Below, one piece after another: positions 996 to 62,828 of a stretch of 64,000 nt of DNA; position 1 is the stretch's first letter, and every line of letters begins with the position of its first letter. Under the pieces are notes generated by a model. The model had not been told where the DNA came from and searched no databases. It saw only the letters and a list, made by a program, of their open reading frames with translations. Origin of the DNA: a virus (lineage: Duplodnaviria; Caudoviricetes); IMG/VR virus record IMGVR_UViG_2599185359_000001, positions 46,779 to 110,778 of that record; one strand, given 5' to 3'. A program made the position numbers and the translations under genes.

Positions 996-1015
996 GTGTG
1001 TGTCGGTCGACACAT
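996..1015 (+). promoter_or_regulatory. Operator motif copy 1 (nrdA promoter spacer)
   Basis: GTGTGTGTCGGTCGACACAT; upstream of TG-a-TACAAT on minus strand. Confidence 0.7.
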
Positions 1016-6050: not shown

Positions 6051-6290
6051 TTACTGCTGGGCGGCCGACTGGCGTTCGCGACGGGCGATCTCCCGCGCGT
6101 CGCTATGCGGGTCGAGTGTGTGTCGGTTGGCACGCGACATGCGACCGAAGGCACCGGCGGGGACGCGTGCGAGCGACTTTTGCAGGCGCGTGGGTGCCGC
6201 GAACTGCTCGTTGAGCTTCTTGCCGGCGAGCTTCGCCTTGTGCGCCTCGAGGCGCTCGGCTTTGGTGGCGTTGTGCGGGAGGCGAGCCAT
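6051..6290 (-). CDS. Hypothetical basic protein
   Basis: ATG at 6290 (MARLPHNAT) after GGAGG, TGATG-coupled. Confidence 0.55.
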   Translation of the reverse strand: MARLPHNATKAERLEAHKAKLAGKKLNEQFAAPTRLQKSLARVPAGAFGRMSRANRHTLDPHSDAREIARRERQSAAQQ

Positions 6291-6422: not shown

Positions 6423-6442
6423 GTGTGTGTTGTTTAACACTC
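6423..6442 (+). promoter_or_regulatory. Operator motif copy 2
   Basis: GTGTGTGTTGTTTAACACTC, overlapping a stop codon. Confidence 0.65.
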
Positions 6443-10828: not shown

Positions 10829-10848
10829 GTGTGTGTCGTTCATAACTC
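10829..10848 (+). promoter_or_regulatory. Operator motif copy 3 (upstream of SSB)
   Basis: GTGTGTGTCGTTCATAACTC, weak right half. Confidence 0.55.
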
Positions 10849-11457: not shown

Positions 11458-11477
11458 ATGTGTGTTGTAACGCACGC
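11458..11477 (+). promoter_or_regulatory. Operator motif copy 4
   Basis: ATGTGTGTTGTAACGCACGC. Confidence 0.65.
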
Positions 11478-14400: not shown

Positions 14401-14907
14401 CTCGTAGAAGCGCGCTACGAAGCGAACGCGCTGCGCGAGGTCAGACATCGCTTTGAGCATGTCGTCGCGCTGTGCGACGCTCTCAAGGTCACCGGTGCTT
14501 ATGACGAGACAGTCATCGTCTAGCGTCGACGCGAGATCGTCCCAGGTGACCCGCGGGACGAAGTAGAAGCGGTCAGCGTCGAACCCGCGGGTAAGCAGGC
14601 GGTAGAGCGACCGCATGCCCTCGTCGTTGGTGGGGTAGAGCTTGAGGAAGCATGCTGTCTCGCGCTCGCTTTTGTCGCGGCCAGCGTCCTCCTCCATGAT
14701 CACGCGGACGCGCACGCCGGCGAGGAGCCGCTTGTCGAGCTTGCCCAGCTTCTTCGTCGCCTCCACCACGGAGGAGATCGTCATAGTGTCGCAGATGCCA
14801 ACGACGTCAGCGCCCGCCTTCTCGGCCACGGCCGGCAGATCGTCGATGCCCAGGATGGACTCGCCAAGGGAGAAGTCGGTGCGCACACCGAGCAGGGGGT
14901 GGATCAT
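11488..14907 (-). CDS. dnaE: DNA polymerase III alpha subunit with C-terminal UDG-like domain
   Basis: GPGRGSVGGS, LLFERFINP, PDADLDF, HAGGVV, IKLDVLGL, YAFNRSHA; start 14907 with ATGA overlap. Confidence 0.95.
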   Translation of the reverse strand: MIHPLLGVRTDFSLGESILGIDDLPAVAEKAGADVVGICDTMTISSVVEATKKLGKLDKRLLAGVRVRVIMEEDAGRDKSERETACFLKLYPTNDEGMRSLYRLLTRGFDADRFYFVPRVTWDDLASTLDDDCLVISTGDLESVAQRDDMLKAMSDLAQRVRFVARFYELVPSDTPYFSRQNHRVIDWAKLNGCFSAMPEWEPLVVQPAFWLDHDDDAYSCNAGIADRRPYSDYLQPVPRYQPHTVKELAAATVRASNAVADRYGRNWGAEFKRGLMNTERLVELAEYKWAKLDPSLPSLANDPDEELKRLCKEGWSDRFTAPIFAHQPSPAELKAEYLPRLQFELDTLRRLGFAPYFLLVSDLVRWSKSKGIYVGPGRGSVGGSLVAYLVGITDVDPIRFKLLFERFINPDRLDLPDADLDFMSTRREEVIAYLADRYGAENVAGIVNYNTMGARGAIRDVARIYGLPQDQLGATKFIGDTHGVSAGLKDAFETTHEIQVFAEQFPHIWDRALKLEGKMRAYGTHAGGVVVAGEPLTKRAVVEKRGDARVINWDKRVSEEQGLIKLDVLGLSTLDMFDQALKLIFQRRNVRVDINKLPLDDEATLAIFSGAKTAGVFQFEGGSVRRLLKEMAKTASLSFEDLVALNALNRPGPLDAGITEAYIRRRAGTEAVSYPWPSLKPILEDTYGVIAYQEQVMQIARVLCGFTPGEADVLRKAMGKKDPVMMAQQRDKFVQGAVDTSGMPDTDADRLFTDIEGFAGYAFNRSHAVEYTLIAYQAAYLKAHYLVEFYTASMGIADSDKLASIVKQAAKDEIRVIPPDVNISTGQFEPLNDCIIIAPLSAVKNVSEKGASAIMAARSDPNPVVVESSTGRRKNKVTTTETFGPGRFVSMEDFKARVPSRAVNSKAIDHLDRVGAFARIVPGQAKSTDPSRQRDQIELMPAISDQGVVATRDIPVDDLVADTVVQVVEDMMANLGEAAVPCELGRAPKFMVILDAPFNDYEELKHQFSYVNYVAPSLHDAGMRLDDAVWTWVLRRPLKKGERDLPAKEVADSLPYLYREIAAMKPPVIVLLGPQAIKTFYPDLKGLADHVGRKTYSAELDATVIVGFKPTQIYHDASKREALTKVFSEVRALVDNSC

Positions 14908-15470
14908 TTCAGCTCCAAGGTTGCACCGTTGCGCTGCACGCGCTTGCACACGGTGAGAATAGAAACGGTCGCGTAGGTGCTGCGCTGCGCGTTCTGAGCG
15001 CTGAGCGAGAAGCTTTGCGCGATGCACGCGGTCAATTCGCGCATCGTGTGCGGTCGCTCTCGCAGCGCGCTGATGACGGCCGCCATGATGCGGTTCACGC
15101 CGGCCACGACTTCGATATGCGCGTGCCGCGGGTCGATGCGATTACGAACCATTTTGTCGATTGTGGAATGCGCTCGCAGATCCAGGTGCGTCTTGAGCGC
15201 CATCACGCCTTCTTCGTCCGGCATCGGGGCGGGCGGGGTTGGCTCGGGCTTCTTGCGAGCAGCTGCCTTCTCGGCGCGCGTCTTCCAAGCCTCACTCATT
15301 TTCTTACCCGTGCCGTCGCTGAAGCGATCAAGCAGGCGCATCATCTGCGGCCGACGCTTGTCTACCATAGTGGCACAGTCGGCGTGCGCCGCGCACGCGG
15401 TGCAGTTCGGCGAGCCCGCGTCGAACGCGAGCGAGGAGCCGAAGCAACCAGGGGCGGGCATGTGTGTCAC
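14904..15470 (-). CDS. Hypothetical Zn-finger / winged-helix protein
   Basis: PGCFG...CTAC...C N-terminus; helix-turn-helix-like C-terminus. Confidence 0.6.
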   Translation of the reverse strand: MTHMPAPGCFGSSLAFDAGSPNCTACAAHADCATMVDKRRPQMMRLLDRFSDGTGKKMSEAWKTRAEKAAARKKPEPTPPAPMPDEEGVMALKTHLDLRAHSTIDKMVRNRIDPRHAHIEVVAGVNRIMAAVISALRERPHTMRELTACIAQSFSLSAQNAQRSTYATVSILTVCKRVQRNGATLELK

Positions 15471-15479
15471 CTTGCACGG
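15460..15479 (+). promoter_or_regulatory. Operator motif copy 5 (dnaE operon start)
   Basis: ATGTGTGTCACCTTGCACGG. Confidence 0.65.
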
Positions 15480-16831: not shown

Positions 16832-16851
16832 ATGTGTGTCAGTTACCACAC
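16832..16851 (+). promoter_or_regulatory. Operator motif copy 6
   Basis: ATGTGTGTCAGTTACCACAC. Confidence 0.72.
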
Positions 16852-16875: not shown

Positions 16876-16895
16876 GTGTGTGGCAGTTCGCATTG
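16876..16895 (+). promoter_or_regulatory. Operator motif copy 7
   Basis: GTGTGTGGCAGTTCGCATTG, 44 bp from copy 6. Confidence 0.55.
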
Positions 16896-16897
16896 GA

Positions 16898-18331
16898 TCA
16901 GCCGACAATGAAGCGCTTTAGCAGCGCCAGCAGCTGCCGGGGCATCTCGTTGACATCGTTGATGACGATGGCGTTGCTGTAATAGGCGGTGGGGCCTGCA
17001 TGCTGAATGCCCACGCCTACCAGGTCGATGCCCGAGGCCTCGATCGCCTTCACCACCTGGCGGGACTGCCGGGCATAGGCGCCATAGTCTTCCGCGCTGC
17101 GGGCTTCAAAGACCAGGCTGCCCGGCTCGCCGTCGGTCATGCAGATGAGGATCTTGCGGCGCTCCTTACGCTGCAGAAGGCGACGGGCTGCGAACTCAAG
17201 GCCACAACCTTCCGGCGTGTAACCCATGTTGTACCCGCATGCGCCGGTTTGGCCGCGTGAGTTGTGAACATGCCCGAAACGCCGCATCACCGGGATCGTC
17301 CAACGCTCCTCGAACGCCTTGAACTTCGGCATCACGATCGGGAACATGCGGTGAATCTTCGCAACCTCGTCCGCGGCGCGCACCTCCTGCAGGTAGCCAT
17401 GTTCGCGGACGCGCGGATCCTCCGTTTTGTCGGTAAAGCCCAGGCACTCGAACGCGATGCCGAGTTTCGCGAGGACCGAACCAAGCGCGTATGAGGCCTC
17501 CGTGGCAAGCACGGTGCGGGCGCCGTTCATTGACCCGGAGCAGTCGATCAACAGCGACAAGGCGGTGTCGAGGCTCTCCGCCTCCTGCCGGCGCGTGAAT
17601 ACACGGTCGTCATTCGCCATGATGCGGTGCAGGTTCGGCCCATGCAGCCGGCCGGAACGCATGCCCGGCACGCGCTTGACCTGGCTACGGGCGGCGATCA
17701 GCCGGCGGAGATCCTTCTGCAGCGGCCCCGTCGCCGATGCGACCTTCTGATCGATACCTTCGAGGCTCACCTGATCGGGAATGGCGATGTCGACCATGGC
17801 GTCAAAGTCTCGCGTGAAGACGCGGAACTCTTCGCCAGCGGCATCCTCGATCTGCTTGCGGATGAACTCCTGCATCAAGGCGTCCATGTCCTTGATCTGA
17901 GAGGCGTCAACCTCGATGATCTTGTCGTCTTCCTCCTCGCGCTCGCTTTCAAAGTCGCCGCCGTGGTTCGTGTTGCTGACGTCCGGCCTGCGCGAGCCTG
18001 CGTCGACCGGGATGCTGCCGAACGGGAAATCCTCGAGGTCTTCGTCCTGCTCGTCCTCGGCGTCTTCCTCGTCGGTGTCGCTGGGGCGGCGGCGCGGGCC
18101 GTCCTCGTCGTTATCGAGGTCGGTGTCGAAGTCGATTTCGGCGCCATCGTCCTGGTAGTCCCAGTTCTCGAGCATGCTCTCGAGCCACTTGGCGTCTTCA
18201 ACATAGCTGCGGAACTCAGGATCGCCGGCGACGTAGCGGTTCATCGCCGCGACGTGTTCGGGCGGCCAGAAGGTTTCGTCGGGACCACACTCGTCGATGA
18301 GGTCCATCGCTTCGTTGACGGAGAGCTTCAT
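16898..18331 (-). CDS. CobT-like C-terminal half (vWA domain) with N-terminal anti-sigma-like helical domain
   Basis: FRVFTRDFD, SGRL, MIDAS DCSGSM, MTDGEP, VGVGI. Confidence 0.82.
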   Translation of the reverse strand: MKLSVNEAMDLIDECGPDETFWPPEHVAAMNRYVAGDPEFRSYVEDAKWLESMLENWDYQDDGAEIDFDTDLDNDEDGPRRRPSDTDEEDAEDEQDEDLEDFPFGSIPVDAGSRRPDVSNTNHGGDFESEREEEDDKIIEVDASQIKDMDALMQEFIRKQIEDAAGEEFRVFTRDFDAMVDIAIPDQVSLEGIDQKVASATGPLQKDLRRLIAARSQVKRVPGMRSGRLHGPNLHRIMANDDRVFTRRQEAESLDTALSLLIDCSGSMNGARTVLATEASYALGSVLAKLGIAFECLGFTDKTEDPRVREHGYLQEVRAADEVAKIHRMFPIVMPKFKAFEERWTIPVMRRFGHVHNSRGQTGACGYNMGYTPEGCGLEFAARRLLQRKERRKILICMTDGEPGSLVFEARSAEDYGAYARQSRQVVKAIEASGIDLVGVGIQHAGPTAYYSNAIVINDVNEMPRQLLALLKRFIVG

Positions 18332-18333
18332 AA

Positions 18334-19626
18334 TCAATTCCGCGATCCCTTCATCAGCTGCCCCAGGCGGCGGCGTGCATTGCGCAGCATGCCCGAAACT
18401 TCACTTTCCGACTTGCTCATCTCCTTCGAGATTTCACTCACCGACATCTTGCGTTGCTTATACAGAAATAGAGCTTTGCGTTCAGTGGGATCTAGTTGCT
18501 TCAGCGCGTCCGTGATCGAGAGACCGCTTTTCCCGCTGCCCGGGCGATCGCCTTCATCTTGGTCATCGGCGTCCCCATCATCTGCTTCTCCGGCGCTAAC
18601 TTCCGAGTCGTCATCGGCGGCATCGCGGTCGTCTTCCCCGCTTTCGCCCTCGCCATGGTCGTCCGACGAACCGTCGCCTTCATCGTCCCCGCCGGTGCCC
18701 GCGCAGCTATCGGCGTCATCGCCATCTTCACCGTCGCTCTGACCTTCGCCGTCTCCGTGACCCTCTGCGTCGCCTTCGTCCTCGGCGCTTTCGTTCTGCC
18801 CCTGGTCGTCGGAGGCATCTTCTGCATCCGGGGTGTCGTCGGCGTCTTCATCCGAGGTGTCGTCCGAGGTGTCGTCGGCGTCTTCGTCTGCGGGATCGGG
18901 CGACGACGGTGCCGGCGGAGGCGGCGCCTTCTCTTCGCCCTTCTCGGGCTCGGGCTCGGGCTTGGGCTCGCGCTTGGGCGGCTTCATCGCCTCCAGCATC
19001 GCCTCGACGATCTCTTCGACGTCGTCGAAGGTCTCCATCGCCTTGAGGCGCCGGGAGAGATCGGGCAGGCGGCTTAGCAGCGGCATGAAGTGCGGCCAAA
19101 GCTTGTGAGCGTCCATATGCTCCTGAAAAGCCTTCTGACCGGCCAGCGCGCGCATTGCGGCCACCATGACCCCGCCGAGCGCCTGGCCGGCATCGCCAGA
19201 GGCAAGCGCCTTCTCGATCGCGGGATGGATCATGGTCGGGATGAACTGCTCGTACATCCGCTCGAGATTCTCTTTGGTGCCCGGCAGATCGCGCGGGAGA
19301 AGCTTCTCAAGCCGGATGTCCTCCACGATATTGATGAGCGCTGCGGCCTTTGCCGTCCGGCCGGCCTTCGTCGCGCGAGCGAACGGGGTATAGAAGATGT
19401 GGCCGACCTCATGGTCGAGGTAACCGTGGATCGCCGCGAGCAGCTCGTCCGACGCGTTGTCGTTCAACTCGGGCAGCACCAGCTTGAGCGCCTTGTTGCC
19501 CTTGGTAGCGACATAGGGCTGGTGGCCGCGGAATTGTACCGCGATGCCGTCCCGCGTGAGGAGCCGAACGGTCTTCGCCAGCGAGTCGCGATGCGACACT
19601 GCCTTCAACGCTCCCGGTGCGCTCAT
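18334..19626 (-). CDS. CobT-like N-terminal half (HExxH domain, acidic linker) with C-terminal sigma70 region-4-like HTH
   Basis: ATG at 19626 after GGAGGAG; GYLDHEVGH, NIVEDIRLE; D/E-rich linker; LDPTERKAL...MSVSEISKEMSKSESEVSGMLRNARRRL. Confidence 0.8.
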   Translation of the reverse strand: MSAPGALKAVSHRDSLAKTVRLLTRDGIAVQFRGHQPYVATKGNKALKLVLPELNDNASDELLAAIHGYLDHEVGHIFYTPFARATKAGRTAKAAALINIVEDIRLEKLLPRDLPGTKENLERMYEQFIPTMIHPAIEKALASGDAGQALGGVMVAAMRALAGQKAFQEHMDAHKLWPHFMPLLSRLPDLSRRLKAMETFDDVEEIVEAMLEAMKPPKREPKPEPEPEKGEEKAPPPPAPSSPDPADEDADDTSDDTSDEDADDTPDAEDASDDQGQNESAEDEGDAEGHGDGEGQSDGEDGDDADSCAGTGGDDEGDGSSDDHGEGESGEDDRDAADDDSEVSAGEADDGDADDQDEGDRPGSGKSGLSITDALKQLDPTERKALFLYKQRKMSVSEISKEMSKSESEVSGMLRNARRRLGQLMKGSRN

Positions 19627-19640
19627 CGTTGCTCCTCCAT

Positions 19641-19660
19641 GTGTGTGTTGCTCTGCATAC
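19641..19660 (+). promoter_or_regulatory. Operator motif copy 8
   Basis: GTGTGTGTTGCTCTGCATAC. Confidence 0.72.
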
Positions 19661-23023: not shown

Positions 23024-23043
23024 GTGTGTGTCACTTCGCATAC
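23024..23043 (+). promoter_or_regulatory. Operator motif copy 11 (dnaB)
   Basis: GTGTGTGTCACTTCGCATAC. Confidence 0.72.
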
Positions 23044-24721: not shown

Positions 24722-24741
24722 GTGTGCGTTCTTGCACACAC
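24722..24741 (+). promoter_or_regulatory. Operator motif copy 12 (phoH)
   Basis: GTGTGCGTTCTTGCACACAC. Confidence 0.68.
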
Positions 24742-25284: not shown

Positions 25285-25304
25285 GTGTGTTTCGTACCGC
25301 ATAG
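25285..25304 (+). promoter_or_regulatory. Operator motif copy 13 (endolysin)
   Basis: GTGTGTTTCGTACCGCATAG. Confidence 0.55.
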
Positions 25305-26312: not shown

Positions 26313-26332
26313 GTGCGTGTCAGTTGGCACAT
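26313..26332 (+). promoter_or_regulatory. Operator motif copy 14 (lysis promoter)
   Basis: GTGCGTGTCAGTTGGCACAT. Confidence 0.7.
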
Positions 26333-29881: not shown

Positions 29882-29910
29882 AGTATATACGTGTGTCGTC
29901 ACACACGCAA
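29882..29910 (-). promoter_or_regulatory. sigma70 promoter, leaderless, for tail fibre
   Basis: TTGCGT-N17-TATACT then 6 nt to ATG 29875; operator fills the spacer. Confidence 0.65.
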
Positions 29911-33947: not shown

Positions 33948-33967
33948 GTGTGTTCCAGTCACCACAT
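33948..33967 (+). promoter_or_regulatory. Operator motif copy 17 (NlpC leaderless promoter)
   Basis: GTGTGTTCCAGTCACCACAT; upstream of TG-c-TACAAT-6nt-ATG on minus strand. Confidence 0.6.
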
Positions 33968-39566: not shown

Positions 39567-39586
39567 GTGTGTGTTGGTTAGGACTT
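39567..39586 (+). promoter_or_regulatory. Operator motif copy 18 (tape measure)
   Basis: GTGTGTGTTGGTTAGGACTT. Confidence 0.6.
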
Positions 39587-40888: not shown

Positions 40889-40908
40889 GTGTGTGTCACT
40901 TGCCACAC
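40889..40908 (+). promoter_or_regulatory. Operator motif copy 19 (major tail promoter)
   Basis: GTGTGTGTCACTTGCCACAC; upstream of TG-g-TATGAT on minus strand. Confidence 0.72.
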
Positions 40909-44282: not shown

Positions 44283-44304
44283 GTGTGTGCCACATCGCAC
44301 ACAC
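44283..44304 (+). promoter_or_regulatory. Operator motif copy 20
   Basis: GTGTGTGCCACATCGCACACAC. Confidence 0.7.
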
Positions 44305-45250: not shown

Positions 45251-45279
45251 ATCATACCAAATGCCGACTGTGTGTGCAA
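45251..45279 (-). promoter_or_regulatory. sigma70 promoter of major capsid gene
   Basis: TTGCAC-N17-TATGAT with extended TG; -35 at the centre of a perfect 16-bp inverted repeat. Confidence 0.7.
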
Positions 45280-45295
45280 GCACACACAGTCGGCA
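45262..45295. repeat. Operator motif copy 21 inside perfect 16-bp inverted repeat
   Basis: TGCCGACTGTGTGTGC-AA-GCACACACAGTCGGCA. Confidence 0.8.
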
Positions 45296-46092: not shown

Positions 46093-46112
46093 GTGTGTAC
46101 CATAACACACAT
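46093..46112 (-). promoter_or_regulatory. Operator motif copy 22 (scaffold)
   Basis: ATGTGTGTTATGGTACACAC on minus strand; TTCCAA-N17-TATGGT. Confidence 0.7.
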
Positions 46113-46235: not shown

Positions 46236-49200
46236 TCAGACGAGCGGCAGGCGGGATTCCACCCGCGCCCACCAGTCCCGAAGGCTCAGGATGTCGAAGA
46301 GGCCGGCCGCGCACCCCGCGGCGAGCCGCTGCACGAGCTGGTTGAAGTTGTCGTCGTTCTGGGCGGGTCCGTAATGCATATAGCACACCAGGTCTTTACC
46401 ACCGTCGATTGCGTCCAGGACCTCGGCGTAGGCCTTGTCGACAAGATTGGTGCTACCGCCTGCTGCCGTGGTGTCGTCGAACGATGCGGCCGGGCAGCGA
46501 ATGGCGAAGTAGGGGTCAAGGCCGTAGCCAGTGTAAACGCCATTGCCGCTGCCGGCCGAGCCCATGCGCCCGAACTTATAGCCCGCGCCAAGAAGCGCGT
46601 CCTCCATCTTGCCGATTTGGAAGGCAGCGTCCTTGAGGTGGAAGTTGGCAAGGCCGCCGGTGATCGCCGGCACATTGCCCGACATGGTAACGGTTCCGGT
46701 GGCGCCTTCGACGTCGACCGACAGAATGGTAAGTCCATCCGGCACGCCCAAAGCGAACATCGTCATGCCAGGCACGAGGTAGGTCGTGTCCACGTTCGTG
46801 AGCTGCGCCGTGCCACTGGCGGTGTAGGTCACCCCCCTGCGCGAGGCTGAGAAGTAGCACGTTCGCGAAGCCCCGGCCGGGATTGCCCGGTCGAAAACCA
46901 GGTCGACCTGCGACCGCCCGTTGCGCTTCATCTGAAGCAGAACAGGGTTGCCCGAGGCGCCCGTGTTCTTCACAACCATGCCGGCGGCGATACCTTGGTT
47001 TACAATGGTGTTCGCCAACGTGATCGTGCTCGTCCCGTTCGGCGTCAACGCGATCGCGTGATTGGGCGCGCCGCCGCCGCCCCAATACGTCCCCGCGCCG
47101 AACGACCAACAGAACAGCTTTGCGTCGTCAGCGTTCGAGAAACCACCCGCGATTGCGCGGTCGCGCAGGGCGTTCAGTTGCTCGACGGCCGCAGCTGGCG
47201 AGGTGAACATCGTGAAGGACTCGTCAGCGGGGCCGCTGTCGAGACTCCACGTCCACCCATAGTCGTTCCTGAGCGACAGAGCCTGGGCGGCGGTTAGATT
47301 CGTGGCGCCGTTGGTGCTCAACACGTCCTGGCAGAGGAAGCCGGTGCCCACGAACGGGTAGGGCATTCCAGCTGCGATGCCCGCGGCCTTCATAGCCGGC
47401 GCCGCCTTAGTGATCTGGCCGACGTTGCCGTCATCGAAAGTCAGGACGATCGCAGGCTTGATCCGCTGCGGGCGGATCAGCGCATCCACCTTCACCGAAG
47501 CGTTTTTGTTGCCAAGGTTCTGCAGCTGAAGCGCAAGCTGCTTCGTGCCAGCCCCTGCGTCCGTCAGCTTTGCGCCAGTCCATGAGCCGCCAGCGCGCAA
47601 GCGCGAAGCTTTGAAGGTCAGCCATCGCTTGCCACGATTGTACGGGTAAAAGTCGGTATTGGGCGCGAGGCCAGAGGCGGGGTCGAACGACGGGATGTAG
47701 GTCTGCCCGTTGGTCGTGAGGCGCAAGACGGCAGCATACAGGGAGGTGTTGTACACATCCATGCCGACATCGATGCAAACGCCGATCAGGTCCCAGCTGG
47801 CGGGATCATCGTTCGCGCCGATGCTCGGGGTCGTGAGCGACGGAAGGTTGACGCCCAGCATGTTGACCTGCACCGCGCCGGTGCCCTGCACGACAGGCCC
47901 AACGACCTGCATCGATGCGCCGCTGCTCACGGTGCGGGAGCCGAGCGTATCGAAGCCGTCGAGCAGCGTGTACGGCGTCATGGTCGCGACCGGCGTGGTG
48001 GGAACGAACGCACCAATGCTGGCAGCCGCGCCCTTGGTGGCATACCGCGCGATATAGTCTGCCTTCCGTGCCGCGATGTCTGTCAGGCCGCTATTGCCCG
48101 ACCCAGTGGGATACGGGTTCGCGAAGATCGCCTGGTGATCGGTGAAGGCTTTCATGTTGGCCAGGTTGCCCTGGTTGGTGAGCTTCGCGGCCCCTGTGAT
48201 GGTGGCCGTGATCGGCCCCGCGCAGACGTTCCCCGTCACGACGAGATCGCCATACACCCCAGTGACATTGATCGCCGGGATCGAGCCCGCAAGAGTCGGG
48301 TCGATCAGGTCGAGCGCGCTCGGATCGTTGATGGCCGTGTTGTTGCGAACGTAGATGTTCACGCCGACCGCGCCTGCGACATTGCCGCTCGAGTCCTTCA
48401 CCACCATCGCGATGCTGTTGGCGTTCGACGTCTGGAAGCAGTTATTCTCGATGTAGATGTTCTGGTAGGTCGGTCCGGTAGCGTTCCACGGCCCAGCGAA
48501 CACGCCGTGCAGGCCGGCATAGCCGCCGTCTCCACCATTGCCGCGGATGATCATGTTGCCACGCACGATCAGATCGCCGAGCACCGGCCCCGTCGTCGTG
48601 GTGGTCGAGAGGGTGTTGATCTGCACGAAATCGGGGTGCGCCTGGCTGCCGGCCGGCGTCAGCTTGTCGATCACAAGGTTGTTCGTGACGGTGACGCTGC
48701 CCGCGTTCGTGAACTGCATCCCATCCTCACCCATGTTGATGAAGGTGTTCGCGTCGACGAGAATGTTGTTCGACTGCGTGCCGTTCACGCCCATGGCAAT
48801 GTTCGTCGCGAGGTTCTTGAACGTGTTATTGCGGATCGTCACATTCTGAACGGCACCGTTCTTGAGGATACCGTAGCTGTAGGTGGACGAGTCATCCACC
48901 TCGAAGCGGTTATTCTCGACGATGTAGTTGTCGCCGGTGAAACGGACGCACTCGACGCCGGGTCCTGAGAGCAGGCTCGTCCAGCGCAGGCCGCGGAGCG
49001 CGAAGCCTCCCGCGATGAAGAAGTTGCTGATCGTCGCCTTGTAGACGTTGTCAGCCGTGAGCACGGCATGGTTGCTCCCGGAGAACGTGCCGGTGGGCGC
49101 AGCGATCCTGGGTCCGGTCGTCCCCTGCGAAGCGTAGTTGCCATTGCGAAGGATGACCGTCTCGCCATAGGCCGCACCATGCGCCGCAAGCTCTGCCGCA

Positions 49201-50417
49201 GTTGCTACGTGGCGAGCGTTGCTGACCGTGACCACGCTGGCCGTCACGGCCCAGCCGGCGCCATCCGATACGCGCAGGCTGTACGAGGCCGCGAGCGCCG
49301 GGGGAGCAGCGCCTGCGGTGCCTGCGAGCACGAGCTTATTGTTGACGATGGTGAAGAGGCCGCCCGCGTCACCCCCGACGATCGCCGGCGTGCCCGAGCC
49401 GGAATACCCCAGGTCGAAAGCACCCATCCCGCGGCGGGTATTCGCGCCCAGCGGAACCGTGAGGGTCGCATCGTCGTCATTGAGGATCGTGCCAGCGCTG
49501 GTGACGGTGCCGATACCAGGCACGAAGACGGTGATGATGAAGTTTTCGTTCGGCTCGACCTTCATGTCGCCGATCACCTTCACGGTGACAGTCTTGACGC
49601 TCTCGTTGGCAGCGAAAAGATCGGCGCCGGTCACCTGCACGACATCATCGGCGCTGATCGGGTTGGTGGCGCCGGGCGTCACTGCCCAGGTGAAGGGTGC
49701 AGGGCCAACAAAGCCATCGCGCTTGAGCGTGACGGTGTAGACGAACGATGTCGTGCCGCTGTTGCCTTCGGGCAGCTCGATCGGATCCGAAATCGAAAGC
49801 GTCGGATTTGCCGGGATCGGCGGAACGACCTCGAGCGAGCCGAGCACGACGCCGGTCAGGTCGCTGCTCGCAAGCAGCTCGCCCTTCTTGTTGCGGCCGA
49901 TCGTTTGATAGCCGATCCGATAGCCACGATCTTCGCGCGAGAAGCGGTAATCGGTGACGTCGGGATAGCTGATGACGGTATAGCCGTCGGTACCCGCCCG
50001 CACCCACCGGCCGCCGGCACGAACGCCGCCGGTGATATTCGCGTCGATAGCCGAAACGAGATCGCCGACGCGGGGGCTCGAGGGAGCGGTTAGCGTGGGC
50101 TTCGACGAGGCGACCGGAAGCGAAGCCGCCGTGATGGTGATCTTCAGTTCCGTCTGCTGCCGCGGCGTCTGCGCATCAGGGTTCCATTCCTCGACAATGA
50201 TCGAGAACTTCTTCACCTGGTCCGGCAGAACCTCGAGGCGGTTGACCTTGAGCTCGGTACCGACGAGCTTCACTCGACTGCCAGCGCTATCGATCAGCCT
50301 CAGCTTCCCGCCGGCGCTGACGTTCTGGATGGTGCCGATGGGCGTATCGGGGGCCGCCCCTTCGGCGATGGTGGCGGCGCTGAGCACGAGCGGCACCAAG
50401 GGCGCGATAAAGCTCAC
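46236..50417 (-). CDS. 1393-aa multidomain protein: cadherin/Ig-like, Calx-beta, right-handed beta-helix, NodB/CE4 polysaccharide deacetylase
   Basis: EGNSG..FVYTVTL..EPNENF..GTILNDD; repeated xxxNNxF turns; IVLTFDDG ... LVCYMHY; GTGA overlap with portal. Confidence 0.75.
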   Translation of the reverse strand: MSFIAPLVPLVLSAATIAEGAAPDTPIGTIQNVSAGGKLRLIDSAGSRVKLVGTELKVNRLEVLPDQVKKFSIIVEEWNPDAQTPRQQTELKITITAASLPVASSKPTLTAPSSPRVGDLVSAIDANITGGVRAGGRWVRAGTDGYTVISYPDVTDYRFSREDRGYRIGYQTIGRNKKGELLASSDLTGVVLGSLEVVPPIPANPTLSISDPIELPEGNSGTTSFVYTVTLKRDGFVGPAPFTWAVTPGATNPISADDVVQVTGADLFAANESVKTVTVKVIGDMKVEPNENFIITVFVPGIGTVTSAGTILNDDDATLTVPLGANTRRGMGAFDLGYSGSGTPAIVGGDAGGLFTIVNNKLVLAGTAGAAPPALAASYSLRVSDGAGWAVTASVVTVSNARHVATAAELAAHGAAYGETVILRNGNYASQGTTGPRIAAPTGTFSGSNHAVLTADNVYKATISNFFIAGGFALRGLRWTSLLSGPGVECVRFTGDNYIVENNRFEVDDSSTYSYGILKNGAVQNVTIRNNTFKNLATNIAMGVNGTQSNNILVDANTFINMGEDGMQFTNAGSVTVTNNLVIDKLTPAGSQAHPDFVQINTLSTTTTTGPVLGDLIVRGNMIIRGNGGDGGYAGLHGVFAGPWNATGPTYQNIYIENNCFQTSNANSIAMVVKDSSGNVAGAVGVNIYVRNNTAINDPSALDLIDPTLAGSIPAINVTGVYGDLVVTGNVCAGPITATITGAAKLTNQGNLANMKAFTDHQAIFANPYPTGSGNSGLTDIAARKADYIARYATKGAAASIGAFVPTTPVATMTPYTLLDGFDTLGSRTVSSGASMQVVGPVVQGTGAVQVNMLGVNLPSLTTPSIGANDDPASWDLIGVCIDVGMDVYNTSLYAAVLRLTTNGQTYIPSFDPASGLAPNTDFYPYNRGKRWLTFKASRLRAGGSWTGAKLTDAGAGTKQLALQLQNLGNKNASVKVDALIRPQRIKPAIVLTFDDGNVGQITKAAPAMKAAGIAAGMPYPFVGTGFLCQDVLSTNGATNLTAAQALSLRNDYGWTWSLDSGPADESFTMFTSPAAAVEQLNALRDRAIAGGFSNADDAKLFCWSFGAGTYWGGGGAPNHAIALTPNGTSTITLANTIVNQGIAAGMVVKNTGASGNPVLLQMKRNGRSQVDLVFDRAIPAGASRTCYFSASRRGVTYTASGTAQLTNVDTTYLVPGMTMFALGVPDGLTILSVDVEGATGTVTMSGNVPAITGGLANFHLKDAAFQIGKMEDALLGAGYKFGRMGSAGSGNGVYTGYGLDPYFAIRCPAASFDDTTAAGGSTNLVDKAYAEVLDAIDGGKDLVCYMHYGPAQNDDNFNQLVQRLAAGCAAGLFDILSLRDWWARVESRLPLV

Positions 50418-53985: not shown

Positions 53986-54005
53986 ATGTGTGTTAGAATA
54001 CACAC
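53986..54005 (+). promoter_or_regulatory. Operator motif copy 24 (terminase)
   Basis: ATGTGTGTTAGAATACACAC. Confidence 0.75.
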
Positions 54006-54240: not shown

Positions 54241-54570
54241 CTAGGGGGTTCCGATATTCCCCGAACTCGCGGAGGGCAGGGCAGTGGGCCTTACGAGATC
54301 ACGCCCAGCATCAGTCGCGGCGAGGGTCCTGACCTTGCGGGATCGGCGCAGGACGAGCCCGTCCTCCCTTACCAAGCCGTGCGCCACCAGGTGGCGGAGG
54401 GTGCAGATCATCGCGCCCCGCGTCGTGCCGGGCGCGGTGGCCTCGATCAGCTGGTGAACATCGAGCAACGAGCCATCGGGGTTACCCTTGACCAGGGCCT
54501 TGAGCACCGCGTGCTGCTTGGAGGTCATCATCAGACCCCGGCGCTTCTCGGCGTAGGGTTTGAGCGCCAT
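54241..54570 (-). CDS. Winged-helix DNA-binding protein
   Basis: LDVHQLIE...TRGAMICTLRHLVAHGLV...TDAGR. Confidence 0.65.
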   Translation of the reverse strand: MALKPYAEKRRGLMMTSKQHAVLKALVKGNPDGSLLDVHQLIEATAPGTTRGAMICTLRHLVAHGLVREDGLVLRRSRKVRTLAATDAGRDLVRPTALPSASSGNIGTP

Positions 54571-55484
54571 CAGACGACCAGCCTTTCGGTCGCGTGCTGG
54601 CGGTCGAAAGCGGTGATTGGCAGCACGTCGGGAAGCTTCGTGCCCACGTCGGGGTTTGTGAATATCCCGTAGAGCGGCGAGGCGAGAACCATCTGCTGCA
54701 GCGCGTGCACGCAGTCCCGCATGGACATGTTGGCGACCCGGCGCTCACCGACCCCGCCCAGGCTCTTGCCGGTCTTCTCCAGCGCCGAGTGGCGGTAGTA
54801 GAAATCTTTCGTCGCTGCCTCGACCGCGGCGCGCTCGATCGATTCCTTTTCGAGCCACTCGTCCAGGATCGCTTCCAGGTCGGCGGGATCGCTGGCGAAG
54901 GTGGCGCGGAAGAACTTGATCCCCACATCGTACATGTTGGACCGCATCGGCTTCACGAACTGGAACCCGGCCTTGTGGGCGAACATGTTGTATTTCGACA
55001 TCGAGCTCTGGATCTCGATGAAGCGCTTGCCCTCCATTCGACTTGCGATGTTCGTGAACCGGTAGGCGAGGCCGGCGCCGCGGTACATCGTGTCGACTAC
55101 GACCCGGGCGACGACGGACATGTTCGCATTGATCCACTTCATGCGGAACTGGTTCGTCATCTTGTTGTCCTGGCCGGTCGGCTTCAGCTTCGGTAGCACG
55201 ACGTGGCGCTCCTTCAGCAGCAGCTTCGGGCTCGCCATCACCAGCACCCCGATCAGCTCGTCGCCCAGCTTCAGCGTGAAGTGGTGGCTGCCGGCCGGAA
55301 GGCTGCCCGATTGCTTGTAGTGGAGCGCCTCCAGCGTGCGCCAGTCGTCGATCGTGCCGCGCTGTACGGTCATCTCGTCGATCAGCGATAGCTTCGGGCG
55401 CGGCGACGCAACGCGTTCAGCCTCCCAGGGAAATTTCGGGTTGACGTCGAGCGTGCGCGTCTCTAGGTGTGTGTCAGTCAACAT
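54570..55484 (-). CDS. GNAT-fold acetyltransferase-like protein
   Basis: LEALHY, VVARVVVDTMYRGAGLA acetyl-CoA motif, MSKYNMF..AGF; ATG at 55484. Confidence 0.75.
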   Translation of the reverse strand: MLTDTHLETRTLDVNPKFPWEAERVASPRPKLSLIDEMTVQRGTIDDWRTLEALHYKQSGSLPAGSHHFTLKLGDELIGVLVMASPKLLLKERHVVLPKLKPTGQDNKMTNQFRMKWINANMSVVARVVVDTMYRGAGLAYRFTNIASRMEGKRFIEIQSSMSKYNMFAHKAGFQFVKPMRSNMYDVGIKFFRATFASDPADLEAILDEWLEKESIERAAVEAATKDFYYRHSALEKTGKSLGGVGERRVANMSMRDCVHALQQMVLASPLYGIFTNPDVGTKLPDVLPITAFDRQHATERLVV

Positions 55485-55486
55485 CG
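55467..55486 (+). promoter_or_regulatory. Operator motif copy 25 (over GNAT start and ABC stop)
   Basis: GTGTGTGTCAGTCAACATCG. Confidence 0.65.
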
Positions 55487-56121
55487 TTCGTCTCGATCTT
55501 GATCCGGTCGTGAAAGCGCTTGGTGACCATGAGGGACGGGGCAAGTTCCTCAAGGAGATCAGTGTGGGTGGTTGCGACGATCAGCGTTTTGCCGTGGGCG
55601 CGAGCGACCTTGGCGAGATTCCAGGCGACGATCTTCGCGGTGACGCGATCGAGCACGGCGCCGAACTCGTCTGCTACCCAGACGTCAGCGCCGCCCTCGA
55701 CCAGCTTCGCCAGGCGGAAGCGATAGCGCTGGCCATCGGAAAGCTCACCGGGCTTGCGGATGTACAGGTAGGCGTCGGACAAGCCCGCCACCGACAGGAG
55801 GCGAATTGCTTCAGCCAGTCCCTCACCGCCCAGCTGGTCGATGAGCGCTTTGTGCAAGTCCAGATCGACGGCGTCTATGTTGGCGACAGATTGGCCCGCC
55901 TCTGCAAGCTTCTCGGCGAGCGCGCGCAGCAGGACCGACTTGCCGGCGCCTGACTGGCCGCAGATGTAGACGACGTCGCCCGGCTTCACCTCCAGCTCGA
56001 CCTTGTCGAGAACGGTGAACTCGCGGTCTTCCAGGCCGAGCCCGAAAGCTTCGGCGACCTTGATGACCCGCTCCGAGCGCGCTGTGCGGCTCTGGAATGC
56101 GGCGTGAAGCTCAACCTTCAT
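55474..56121 (-). CDS. Soluble ABC-family ATPase
   Basis: GQSGAGKS, LSDGQRYR, VADEF, ATTH; no permease nearby; ATG at 56121. Confidence 0.85.
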   Translation of the reverse strand: MKVELHAAFQSRTARSERVIKVAEAFGLGLEDREFTVLDKVELEVKPGDVVYICGQSGAGKSVLLRALAEKLAEAGQSVANIDAVDLDLHKALIDQLGGEGLAEAIRLLSVAGLSDAYLYIRKPGELSDGQRYRFRLAKLVEGGADVWVADEFGAVLDRVTAKIVAWNLAKVARAHGKTLIVATTHTDLLEELAPSLMVTKRFHDRIKIETNDVD

Positions 56122-56399
56122 CGGGCGTCTCCGTACACGTCCCAGGCATAGCCGGCGGGCTCGGGGTCGAAACAAAGCTCGTCGTCCAGATCTTCCCATT
56201 CGTCATCGGGTACGTCGAGCTCTTCGCCAGCGCCGCCCTCACAAGCGGCACCCCCGTCTTCGAGACCCTGCGCCGCGTCGACGATGTCGTCGAAGAGCTG
56301 GCCGGGCGAGGGGAAGCAGGCGAGCCAGCCGCGGAGCGCGGCGAGGTAGATCCTGGGGTTCCGCACAAAGAACACCCAATGCGTCGGCAGAATAGGCAT
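56118..56399 (-). CDS. Small acidic hypothetical protein
   Basis: ATGA overlap with ABC ATPase. Confidence 0.55.
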   Translation of the reverse strand: MPILPTHWVFFVRNPRIYLAALRGWLACFPSPGQLFDDIVDAAQGLEDGGAACEGGAGEELDVPDDEWEDLDDELCFDPEPAGYAWDVYGDAR

Positions 56400-56405
56400 A
56401 GCTGG

Positions 56406-57086
56406 TCACCGTCCACGGCAAAATTCCACGAAGGCTTCGGCGCCGGTCTTCCCGGTGTCGGCCTCGATCTGTGCGATGAAGCGGCGCACGTCGCGCACCG
56501 CGGCAATGGGGATGGCGTTGAAGCCCAAGGCCTTGGTCAGCTTCTCTTCCGACGCATCGGTCTTGGCGACCTTCTCCTCGGTCTCGGCATCCTGCCGATC
56601 GATGTCGGCGTCCAGGTCAGTCGAGATCGCGGCGATGTCGACGGTGCCCAGGTCCTCGATCAGGAAGTCGAGCTCGTGCTCCTCAAAGCCGAGCGCCGCG
56701 ATGTCGACGTCATCGGCGTCCATCAGGCGCTTCAGCTCCTCCGCCATGAAGCCGCTGTCGTATTCCGTCGACGCGGTCTTGTTGTGCGCGATGCGCGCGG
56801 CGTCTGCCTGGTTCTTCGAAAGGTGGGCGGCGTGCTTCACCGGCACCGTCGTGTGGCCGAGCGCGACCAGGGCTTCATACCGACCGTGGCCAGCGATCAG
56901 CACGCCTTCGAGATCGACGATCAGGGCGTCGAACAGACCGTCAGCCGAGATGCTCGCCTTCAGCTTCGCGATATGCTGCGGCGAGTGCACCTTGGTGTTT
57001 TTGGCGTAAGGTTTGACCTTGTCGATCGTCCACATCTCCGTGGGCAGACGGACCAGGTCATAGGGATCGTGTGTGTTGCTCAACAC
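56406..57086 (-). CDS. ParB/Srx N-terminal-domain protein
   Basis: KPYAKNTKVH, SISADG, IAGHGR, ARIAHN. Confidence 0.85.
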   Translation of the reverse strand: MLSNTHDPYDLVRLPTEMWTIDKVKPYAKNTKVHSPQHIAKLKASISADGLFDALIVDLEGVLIAGHGRYEALVALGHTTVPVKHAAHLSKNQADAARIAHNKTASTEYDSGFMAEELKRLMDADDVDIAALGFEEHELDFLIEDLGTVDIAAISTDLDADIDRQDAETEEKVAKTDASEEKLTKALGFNAIPIAAVRDVRRFIAQIEADTGKTGAEAFVEFCRGR

Positions 57087-57088
57087 AT
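57069..57088 (+). promoter_or_regulatory. Operator motif copy 26 (over ParB start)
   Basis: GTGTGTGTTGCTCAACACAT. Confidence 0.72.
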
Positions 57089-57265
57089 GCCTCCTTCACG
57101 AAAAAGATCGTCGATTCCCTGCGGCTCAACTTCCTCGAAGAGATCGCCGCTCGTGCACATGCGGCACGTCCGCGGCTTGTCGCGGTTCACGCACCCGGCG
57201 CAGTCATCGAACTGCCAGTGGGGCAGGGTCTCGGGCTCGTCGTGGAAATCGTCACACAGCGGCAT
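57080..57265 (-). CDS. Small CxxC-CxxC metal-binding protein
   Basis: CAGC...CRMC; overlaps both ParB genes. Confidence 0.55.
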   Translation of the reverse strand: MPLCDDFHDEPETLPHWQFDDCAGCVNRDKPRTCRMCTSGDLFEEVEPQGIDDLFREGGMC

Positions 57266-57932
57266 CGTTGTCGTCCTTCAGCAGCAGAAAGGCGAGCGCG
57301 TCGCCGGCGTTGGTCAGATCGTCTTCCTTGGTGAAGCCCTGCTCGCTCATCGTCTTCTTGATGAGGTCGGAGATGCGAGCGGCGTCGTTCAGCCCGTTGC
57401 GGAAGCGCATGGTCTGGTGGGTCTTCGCGAGCTTGGGCGCGGGCGTCTCGTCCTCGCCGTCGTCTTCATCCTCGTCGAGCGTGGGCTGGTCGATGTCGAG
57501 ATCGTCGATGTCGACCGACAGACTTGCCGTGATCGCGCTGATGTCGCGTTGGCTCCAGGGCAACACGGCCTCCAGGTCGCCGGCGTTCAGCTCGCTCAGC
57601 AGCTCCGAAAGCTTCAGCGTGTCGTCGATGCCATAGCGCGCGTTGTCGGCCAGGCTGATCTCCTTGGCCTTCTCGTCGCTGATCACGCCCAGGTTGATGC
57701 AGGGCACCTCGTCCATGCCGAGCTCGATTGCCTGCTCGTTGCGATGCCAGCCGCCGATGCACTCATGGGCGATCGGGCCGCCGCCGCCGTCCAGCAGACG
57801 GATCAGGATCGGCTTGAAGAAGCCGTTGCGCTCGATCGAGGCGCGCAGCTTCTCTTCGTTCTCGTGCGAGACGACGTTCGCATTCCACGGGCTGGCGGTG
57901 ATCGTGCGAGGGTCTCGCATCTCATATTTCAT
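57252..57932 (-). CDS. ParB/Srx N-terminal-domain protein
   Basis: PWNAN, SIERNGFFKPI, IGGWHR, ISLADN. Confidence 0.85.
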   Translation of the reverse strand: MKYEMRDPRTITASPWNANVVSHENEEKLRASIERNGFFKPILIRLLDGGGGPIAHECIGGWHRNEQAIELGMDEVPCINLGVISDEKAKEISLADNARYGIDDTLKLSELLSELNAGDLEAVLPWSQRDISAITASLSVDIDDLDIDQPTLDEDEDDGEDETPAPKLAKTHQTMRFRNGLNDAARISDLIKKTMSEQGFTKEDDLTNAGDALAFLLLKDDNDAAV

Positions 57933-57953: not shown

Positions 57954-57973
57954 ATGTGTGTCATCCTACACTG
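57954..57973 (+). promoter_or_regulatory. Operator motif copy 27
   Basis: ATGTGTGTCATCCTACACTG. Confidence 0.68.
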
Positions 57974-58030
57974 TTTCGCCGACGTGAGGAAGCCAAATCT
58001 TAGACACTTCTGGTAAGGTGGTTACAGTAC

Positions 58031-58050
58031 GTGTGTGTCGGTAAGCACTA
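58031..58050 (+). promoter_or_regulatory. Operator motif copy 28
   Basis: GTGTGTGTCGGTAAGCACTA. Confidence 0.68.
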
Positions 58051-58075
58051 GACCCGGTAAGGTGAAACCGGTAAG

Positions 58076-60030: not shown

Positions 60031-60050
60031 GTGTGTGTTGCTACACACAC
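60031..60050 (+). promoter_or_regulatory. Operator motif copy 29 (near-perfect dyad)
   Basis: GTGTGTGTTGCTACACACAC inside TTGCTC-N17-TACACA. Confidence 0.75.
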
Positions 60051-62570: not shown

Positions 62571-62594
62571 CGGCGGCGGAGTATGTGCTAACCA
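62567..62594 (+). promoter_or_regulatory. Putative promoter of xis-int
   Basis: TTGACG-N16-TAACCA with extended TG; operator over -10. Confidence 0.55.
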
Positions 62595-62602
62595 ACACAC
62601 AC
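62583..62602 (-). promoter_or_regulatory. Operator motif copy 30 (xis)
   Basis: GTGTGTGTTGGTTAGCACAT on minus strand, 1 nt before the xis ATG. Confidence 0.72.
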
Positions 62603-62603
62603 C

Positions 62604-62828
62604 ATGACGCAACAAGCTGAAAAATCCCGGTGGGAGGGACCCCTCCCATTCACCCCCAGGATGCTCGATGCGGACCTGGCTGCTCTTTACATGGGCGTCT
62701 CCCGACGCAAGTTTCTGACCCGTGTTGAACAACACACCTATCCCGCTCCTACTCGGGATGGTGGCAACACGGTCTGGGATCGACACGTCCTGGATCGATA
62801 TCTGGATGCCCGGTCGGGCCTCGCATGA
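62604..62828 (+). CDS. xis: Excisionase / AlpA-like HTH
   Basis: PRMLDADLAALYMGVS..F......YPAP......VWDR..LD; overlaps integrase. Confidence 0.75.
   Translation: MTQQAEKSRWEGPLPFTPRMLDADLAALYMGVSRRKFLTRVEQHTYPAPTRDGGNTVWDRHVLDRYLDARSGLA

Follow-up and report, generated by a model that had tools for sequence, protein, structure and literature searches.

The stretch of 64,000 nucleotides (nt) analysed here, referred to below as the window, belongs to a virus of the Caudoviricetes (IMG/VR record IMGVR_UViG_2599185359_000001, positions 46,779 to 110,778) and corresponds to G000:C16:72085-136084 of a host assembly of 4.77 Mb; positions without a prefix are window coordinates. Between 54570 and 57932 it carries leftward genes for ABC-type ATPase-like and ParB-like proteins, and at two of the junctions in this module a directional word of about 22 bases is written across the start and stop codons. 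This word is a member of a family of sites dispersed over the phage genome, which is the subject of the present analysis. The features of the locus are as follows.

57252-57932, minus strand: ParB_N-like gene, which heads the leftward operon
57069-57088, minus strand: focus site 2, covering the TGA of gene 57080-57265 and the GTG/TTG start of gene 56406-57086
56406-57086, minus strand: ParB-like gene of 226 amino acids (aa), with its start inside site 57069
55474-56121, minus strand: ABC-type ATPase-like gene of 215 aa, with its 3' end inside site 55467
55467-55486, minus strand: focus site 1, in an 11-nt gene overlap; its central hexamer is TGACTG-like, not -10-like
54570-55484, minus strand: ABC-type ATPase-like gene of 304 aa (phrog_886), the first six codons of which are the motif

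The whole window lies within a prophage of 109.5 kb in a Sphingomonas-like bacterium, with a GC content of 63% as compared to 67% in the host. The prophage is bounded by a 40-bp direct repeat (C16:26707-26746 and C16:136215-136254), the right-hand copy of which is the 3' half of a tRNA-Glu(TTC) gene and adjoins the integrase. DnaE, portal, and terminase assign it to the SSU5-like siphoviruses/phage-plasmids, with ~40-45% aa identity to the Rhizobium phages RHEph10 and B1VFA, the Pseudomonas phage nickie, and SSU5; it is thus an integrated prophage, with its attachment (att) site at tRNA-Glu, in a phage group usually described as phage-plasmids. Genes run leftward from position 57932 through the structural, lysis, and replication modules to about C16:33.9k, and blocks of rightward genes are found at both prophage ends. 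The closest relative is contained in a metagenome-assembled Sphingomonas genome (G101, contigs C8 and C126), which is collinear at 66-84% nt identity. No related prophage was found among 100 related genomes, and a metagenome scan with DnaE returned solely cellular DnaE.

A conserved, oriented and phage-restricted family of sites

The motif family is real, non-random, and restricted to the phage. A position weight matrix built from seeds and applied to the window with a cut-off of >19 bits returned 29 sites, the next best position scoring 11 bits, and second-order Markov simulations yielded zero sites >15 bits. With the latter value as the whole-genome cut-off, all sites in the 4.77-Mb assembly fall inside the prophage, except for two marginal matches. 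After re-estimation on the entire prophage, the matrix returns 51 sites in these 109.5 kb; the other 4.66 Mb of the assembly hold about none. On the mRNA strand the consensus reads g-C/T-G-T-G, three loosely conserved bases, A, N, Y, and R, followed by ACACACAC (in short form GYGTG-N8-ACACACAC), and the conserved span of 20-23 bp is bipartite and directional, with a weak half that is followed by a strong one.

The polarity of the sites had been described as mostly following transcription and flipping at the rightward xis gene, and this is borne out by the whole prophage. Forty of 46 sites are co-oriented with the local genes (44 of 51 in the relative), counts that are not independent because the genes lie in three blocks, and the polarity is reversed in both blocks of rightward genes. 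Copies that do not conform are either near-palindromic or belong to divergent pairs. Of the individual exceptions named in the preliminary description, 46093 is truly anti-oriented and 58031 lies at the divergence point, overlapping the predicted +1 of a rightward promoter-like pair, whereas 20379 and 29916, at less than 6 bits, fall outside the family. A Chi-like or packaging polarity was rejected, since the flips occur at the transcription switches and not at the terminase/cos region.

Some 36 of the 51 sites have a syntenic counterpart in the relative, at its nt identity of 66-84%. Five phages (the present one, G101, L002, L178, and L179) show an enriched and co-oriented (CA)4 half, and in the most distant of them a marker protein is only 32% identical. 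In turn, the weak half is phage-specific, being GYGTGTG here vs GTGCATGG in the relative and in L178. A conserved box combined with a phage-specific one, together with their absence from the host genome, argues for a phage-encoded reader of the sites and for selection acting on DNA. In ~60 distant SSU5-like contigs, a de novo k-mer search turned up iterons and coding repeats only, and no dispersed junction motifs. RHEph10 (L011, 1-50000) does carry a dispersed 20-bp palindrome of its own, GTCAGTCAATATTGACTGAC, which precedes numerous genes and in some cases has a terminator hairpin after it; GTCAGTCA is common to this palindrome and the centre of certain sites of the present phage.

The two focus sites were previously noted as lying in zero-gap junctions and as being themselves translated, and both points hold, with the register preserved in the relative. 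At 55467 the TGA of the upstream gene (55474-55476) and the ATG of the downstream gene (55484) are inside the motif, which encodes the peptide MLTDTH. Site 57069 similarly encloses the TGA that ends the upstream gene (57080-57082) and the GTG/TTG at which the downstream one starts (57086/57083), the peptide being VLSNTH, and a Shine-Dalgarno (SD) sequence, GGAGG, is found upstream of the motif. The PHROG alignment of the 304-aa ATPase-like protein starts at residue 24, with no alternative start before that residue; this alignment and the orthologues in the relative show that translation begins inside the motif, and that the starts are not artefacts of extension of the open reading frame (ORF). 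In the relative, the junction corresponding to site 1 (contig C126) carries the motif in the same register, encoding MVTDTH. That corresponding to site 2 encodes MVSNTH and, after it, the conserved DPYDLV.LPTEMW, and its ATG start is contained in the relative's form of the motif. At both junctions the codons that spell the motif are kept while the neighbouring codons have diverged, and each coding-embedded copy matches the weak-half version of its own phage. A third embedded copy is located outside the window, at C16:67221, on a kinase-like gene, the orthologue of which in the relative starts 15 nt past the motif. The central hexamers of the two focus copies, TGACTG (55467) and TGAGCA (57069), have G at -11 and are not -10-like. 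Since in all three copies the start codon is inside the motif and the SD is upstream of it, they cannot be promoters of the genes that they overlap; with the register and the own-phage weak half kept at the two focus junctions, these copies behave as DNA sites under selection.

Promoter-like copies and core-promoter geometry

The other sites in the window, and two genes discussed below as candidate binders, are listed here. Promoters and terminators, both in this list and in the text, are sequence predictions, and the terminator scan was too strict.

996-1015, minus strand: site 48 nt 5' of the start of the ribonucleotide reductase large subunit
6116-6135, minus strand: site within the 3' end of ORF 6051-6290
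6423-6442, minus strand: site that includes the TAA of the upstream gene and is followed by an SD; no -35
10829-10848, minus strand: site with the start codon 34 nt downstream
11458-11477, minus strand: site directly after the DnaE stop, with the pair TTGACC-16-TACAAC
14904-15461, minus strand: 185-aa protein with a Cys-rich N terminus and a C-terminal winged helix, a candidate binder only
15460-15479, minus strand: site preceded by a terminator and abutting, at its 3' edge, the ATG of the 185-aa/DnaE operon; no SD
16832-16851, minus strand: class-1 site before CobS, with the -35 TTGAAT 16 nt 5' of the central TAACTG
16876-16895, minus strand: tandem site, 44 nt upstream of site 16832
18334-19626, minus strand: CobT_N-like protein with a C-terminal sigma-70 region 4 helix-turn-helix (HTH), a candidate binder only
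19641-19660, minus strand: site of the CobT_N gene, in the order terminator-motif-SD-ATG
23024-23043, minus strand: site before a DnaB-like gene, with the pair TTGACG-17-TATGCG
24722-24741, minus strand: class-1 site before PhoH, with the -35 TTGCGT
25285-25304, minus strand: site immediately 5' of an SD, 14 nt from the ATG
26313-26332, minus strand: site immediately 5' of an SD, with the pair TTGCCG-17-TAGTAT
29889-29908, minus strand: site with the start of a tail-fibre gene 13 nt downstream
33948-33967, minus strand: site at a junction of tail genes
39567-39586, minus strand: site filling the 27-nt gap 5' of the tape-measure gene; no -35
40889-40908, minus strand: site with the start of a tail gene 41 nt downstream
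44283-44302, no strand assigned: variant that forms a perfect palindrome (9-bp stem), flanked by the major-capsid stop and a terminator
45268-45287, no strand assigned: short-spaced palindrome within a 15-bp terminator-like hairpin
46093-46112, plus strand: anti-oriented site, the reversed orientation of which is kept in the relative and in L002
52076-52095, minus strand: site with the portal start 21 nt downstream
53986-54005, minus strand: site 45 nt 5' of a small-terminase-like gene
57954-57973, minus strand: site before the first leftward gene, with a central -10-like TAGGAT that is kept in the relative; 21 nt to the ATG
58031-58050, minus strand: divergence-point site, overlapping the +1 of the rightward pair TAGACA-16-TACAGT (58001-58028)
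60031-60050, no strand assigned: near-perfect palindromic site in the rightward block
62583-62602, plus strand: xis site, with the -35 TTGACG; the xis ATG (62604) is 1-2 nt past the motif
62720-62739, plus strand: site inside the xis ORF, ~110 nt 5' of int

The relationship of the motif to a core promoter is most clearly seen at 15460. An intrinsic terminator is located 15 nt upstream of this site, and the ATG at its 3' edge leaves no room for an SD, an order that is kept in the relative, L179, and L178. In this register TG occupies -15/-14, the hexamer (TAAGTG in three phages) -12 to -7, and ACACAC -6 to -1, with the A of the ATG at +1; the ATG of the 185-aa gene is found at the +1 predicted by the register in four phages. 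Judged by its sequence, this is the textbook layout of an extended -10, leaderless promoter. The xis gene (62604-62825) has the same arrangement, with the addition of a -35, and its site covers the predicted +1.

When the sites are aligned in the sense direction, a -35-like cacTTGCGCga is found at one fixed column in ~20% of the copies of each phage, 16-17 nt 5' of a TA in the motif centre. The central -10-like TA is present in 13 of 23 sites with the -35 and in 17 of 80 without it (Fisher p=0.002); therefore, a promoter-type class can be distinguished from a class without sigma-70 features. TG is present at columns 52-53 (-15/-14) in 48 of 50 prophage sites, TA at -12/-11 in only ~30% of the sites, and T at -7 in none, and the family as a whole does not conform to a sigma-70 hexamer with A at -11 and T at -7. 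The position of the -10 relative to the motif varies among the -35/-10-like pairs (columns 45, 50, 55, and 57), as expected for an operator laid over promoters. Taken together, ~25-30% of the sites have -35 and/or -10-like features in these predictions and the rest do not, so that about 30% of the copies look promoter-competent and the remainder look operator-only. Site 57954 is probably the predicted P-left with its operator.

The preliminary description had singled out five sites as lying between a stop codon and the next start with no visible promoter. This remains true of 6423 and 39567, which are without any -35. The other three, 11458, 23024, and 15460, do have promoter-like features, with the -35/-10 pairs of the first two both kept in the relative and in a third phage, L179.

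Several structures were seen in the vicinity of the sites. At ~46-60 kb of C16 (L013), leader hairpins with covarying stems and an AGCGGT loop, such as GGTCAGCGGTGACC, are found 3' of class-1 sites; in many small early genes they separate the motif from the SD and, together with the -35, make up a repeated promoter cassette of ~90 bp. Two motif-like perfect palindromes (44283-44302 and 45262-45295) form stable hairpins directly after the major-capsid and scaffold-like genes, an arrangement that is kept in the relative and in L002, and these copies may double as terminators or RNA-end structures. On the plus strand, four direct GGTAAG repeats, three of them as CCGGTAAG, lie within 64 bp (58012-58075) just 5' of the helicase ATG, and one of them falls inside site 58031; they may represent a second operator or a set of iterons. 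Finally, an ORF of 1393 aa (46236-50417, minus strand), located between the portal and scaffold-like genes, encodes a right-handed beta-helix with a weak Calx-beta match. It has no PHROG match and is missing from the otherwise collinear relative, and thus looks like a 4.2-kb insertion in the head module.

A proposed regulator of the sites and the alternatives

We tentatively favour, as a serious possibility that falls somewhat short of probable, a reading in which the sites are DNA-level recognition sites of a phage regulator and serve in operator/stoperator silencing of the prophage. The 22-bp word would be the site for a phage-encoded regulator, laid on the core-promoter geometry of the lineage, namely an invariant TG at -15/-14, a variable hexamer at -12 to -7, and an almost invariant (AC)3-4 up to +1. 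The ~30% of copies with a -10-like hexamer, often with a -35 located 16-17 nt upstream or with a terminator just before them, would be promoters, at which the bound factor would cover the -10 and +1 and block initiation. Copies without a -10-like hexamer, including 55467 and 57069, would be operator-only, an assignment that for the embedded copies follows from their inability to start the transcription of their own genes. A factor bound to such a copy would stand in the path of RNA polymerase arriving from upstream, and an asymmetric, co-oriented site could in this way act as a stoperator of the type known from mycobacteriophage L5, keeping the prophage silent. We infer binding of the sites by a protein, the role of that protein as a repressor, and a block of elongation. 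The likeness to L5, which had been proposed earlier, is supported by the asymmetry, copy number, orientation, and placement of the sites at junctions and promoters, and is reduced by those supposedly promoter-less sites that are probably promoters; on balance, the stoperator reading appears plausible.

A number of points weigh against silencing by operators and stoperators. Several copies that lack a -35 are located 10-16 nt before a start codon even in larger gaps, and two such copies follow conserved terminators, which resembles initiation rather than a roadblock. Several of the sites first named as promoter-less are probably promoters, to judge from their -35/-10 pairs, which relatives share, from the terminators before them, and from a geometry with a short leader or none, and roadblocks inside operons with already repressed promoters seem redundant. 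The strong half is kept among relatives with proteins 32-60% identical, more than would be expected for immunity specificity. Furthermore, next to the one CI-like repressor of the prophage there is a separate pair of palindromes but no GTGTGT site, and among ~60 ORFs scanned against Pfam and PHROG no binder was recognised, the candidates returned being weak. The more specific proposition that the operator-only copies are orientation-dependent roadblocks for a repressor unrelated to L5 gp71, evolved independently in this alphaproteobacterial SSU5-like lineage, must be considered doubtful; the operators would then be derived from the core-promoter sequence of the phage itself, and written even into start codons.

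The search for the regulator gave the following picture. Pfam searches of ~40 small conserved ORFs revealed no regulator, HTH_3 was not found in the prophage, and neither Pfam nor PHROGs recognised a protein with the HTH and 'stoperator' domain of the L5 repressor type. The CI-like S24 protein (C16:45744-46457, outside the window) is the only gene set against the lytic operons, and its upstream region (C16:45629-45743) contains the only two GCGGTY-N4-RACCGC palindromes of the prophage. With its own palindromes, no GTGTGT site near it, and its module missing from the relative that shares the motif, it is unlikely to be the binder; lacking a CI/S24 repressor, the relative would need another one for lysogeny, a point in favour of the operator/stoperator reading. 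The 185-aa winged-helix protein is a weak candidate, its AlphaFold2 model (pLDDT 78) giving consistent but weak Foldseek matches to ArsR/MarR folds (E ~0.2-0.7). The CobT_N-like protein with the sigma-70 region 4 HTH and the two ParB_N-like proteins, in which no HTH was detected, are likewise weak candidates. The CobT-like gene is split in two (16898-19626, minus strand) beside a CobS/MoxR-like ATPase, and the terminal region 4 HTH of its N-terminal half scores above the Pfam cut-off; at the locus syntenic with CobT, RHEph10 has a full sigma factor gene. A phage sigma factor was rejected as a candidate, as the sigma of RHEph10 (gp045) has no homologue here, where only the region 4 HTH fused to CobT_N is present.

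The main rival to the operator/stoperator reading is that all, or nearly all, copies are phage-specific promoters, at which a phage factor (sigma-like, an appropriator, or an activator) would read GTG...ACACACAC without a -35 and transcription would start at the 3' edge of the motif, the embedded copies being internal or decaying promoters. A good part of the geometry speaks for this, namely the invariant TG at the extended -10 position, the order terminator-motif-ATG at 15460 with the ATG exactly 7 nt past the hexamer and no SD, and the order terminator-motif-SD-ATG at 19641, both orders kept in four phages, as well as the xis ATG 1-2 nt past its motif. In addition, the motif lies 10-14 nt from the ATG in gaps as wide as 60-138 nt, late genes have -35-less copies only, and a distant relative, RHEph10, encodes its sigma factor in a syntenic locus. 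Nevertheless, T is never found at -7 and ~70% of the copies lack TA at -12/-11, and three conserved copies lie downstream of the SD and start codon of their own genes. The conserved copy at 44283 would fire straight into a terminator, conserved anti-oriented copies would be antisense promoters, and no sigma region 2 (Sigma70_r2), phage RNA polymerase, or NusG paralogue was found in the prophage. We consider this explanation unlikely, though the strongest of the alternatives. For want of a phage NusG/RfaH paralogue in our searches, an ops-like NusG/RfaH reading was rejected as well.

A second alternative would make the sites docking points for a genome-organising or partition protein of the ParB/KorB/Noc type, or sites of some other DNA transaction, and would leave them without a direct part in transcription. 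ParB-type proteins bind tens of dispersed sites, and here two ParB_N-like genes head the leftward operon, with the focus sites in the same module. However, ParB-type sites are symmetric palindromes, while those described here are asymmetric and oriented, most clearly in the relative; their orientation strictly follows gene direction, their placement relative to start codons is fixed, and the ParB-like proteins lack a detectable HTH. Such a role is accordingly quite improbable.

The least probable of the explanations considered, with only a very slight chance of being correct, is an RNA-level element, which could be an unstructured (CA)n tract that enhances translation or a binding target for a translational repressor in ribosome-binding regions; the preliminary description had offered an RNA-level (CA)n element as its alternative. 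In E. coli, translation is known to benefit from CA repeats close to the start codon, and ACACACAC directly precedes the SD in many copies and falls on codons 4-6 in three, with several sites less structured than shuffled sequence. Yet where a copy is of the promoter type, the 3' end of its motif coincides with the predicted +1, so that the transcript would lack the motif, and a simple CA tract would have no need of a weak half that is conserved, phage-specific, and held at a fixed spacing. Anti-oriented and palindromic copies are also conserved. An RNA hairpin or a member of a known RNA family was rejected, since a 5-bp stem is possible in only 12 of 51 copies here and 9 of 56 in the relative, the invariant half never shows a compensating change, and Rfam gave no match; fold z-scores are mostly above 0, the majority of sites being no more stably folded than shuffled sequence. 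The evidence thus favours a motif acting as DNA rather than RNA.

Relation to known systems and significance

The closest counterpart of the proposed operator/stoperator network is that of the Cluster A mycobacteriophages, exemplified by L5 gp71 and the repressors of Bxb1 and TipsytheTRex, in which stoperators are asymmetric, protein-bound sites placed in one orientation in front of RNA polymerase (PMC9283540, PMC6550527). The L5-type immunity repressor is a monomer with an HTH and a 'stoperator' domain, and its site is a 13-mer. Common to both systems are the tens of asymmetric copies across a temperate phage genome (more than 20 dispersed ones here, with the asymmetry clearest in the relative), a minority of them in promoters, most in short intergenic junctions, and some over start or stop codons. 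In both, the orientation follows transcription, and one part of the motif is conserved whereas another differs between related phages. Unlike the 13-mer of L5, the present site is a bipartite one of ~22 bp that lies over promoter geometry. The host is alphaproteobacterial, the phage is a 110-kb SSU5-like siphovirus in which Pfam and PHROGs recognised no gp71-like repressor, and many of its -35-less copies look able to initiate transcription.

The layout also has a parallel in P1, a large phage of the phage-plasmid type with further immunity modules, in which a single repressor, C1, acts on many scattered, oriented, asymmetric 17-bp operators over promoters. The parallel is one of layout and not of shown homology in sequence or protein, and P1 operators are, as far as is known, all promoter-associated, unlike the sites described here. 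In Alphaproteobacteria, extended -10, leaderless promoters have TG at -15/-14 and the hexamer at -12 to -7, and at two or three of the present sites the start codon is likewise at the predicted +1. Host promoters are not known to have the invariant 8-bp (AC)n discriminator or the phage-specific upstream half, and the sites are absent from the host genome. Oriented intergenic repeats that run along transcription are also found in T1-like phages (TLS), where a stoperator, an enhancer, and an UP-element were weighed by the authors and the question was left open; those phages are virulent, and their repeats are AT-rich and further from start codons than the sites analysed here (PMC11447400).

No paper was found that describes this motif, or such a network, in SSU5-like or Sphingomonas phages. 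To our knowledge, genome-wide operator/stoperator silencing has been experimentally tested only in mycobacteriophages. If the operator/stoperator reading is correct, the sites would represent a second, unrelated stoperator lineage, and would point to a general solution for keeping large prophages quiet. With its ~50 sites, one box conserved and the other phage-specific, and with copies embedded in coding starts, this lineage of SSU5-like phages and phage-plasmids of Proteobacteria would then provide a clean system for a one-way block of RNA polymerase. If the sites are promoters instead, they would define the transcription programme of a poorly known phage group, leaderless mRNAs included, and would point to an undetected factor that redirects the host polymerase.

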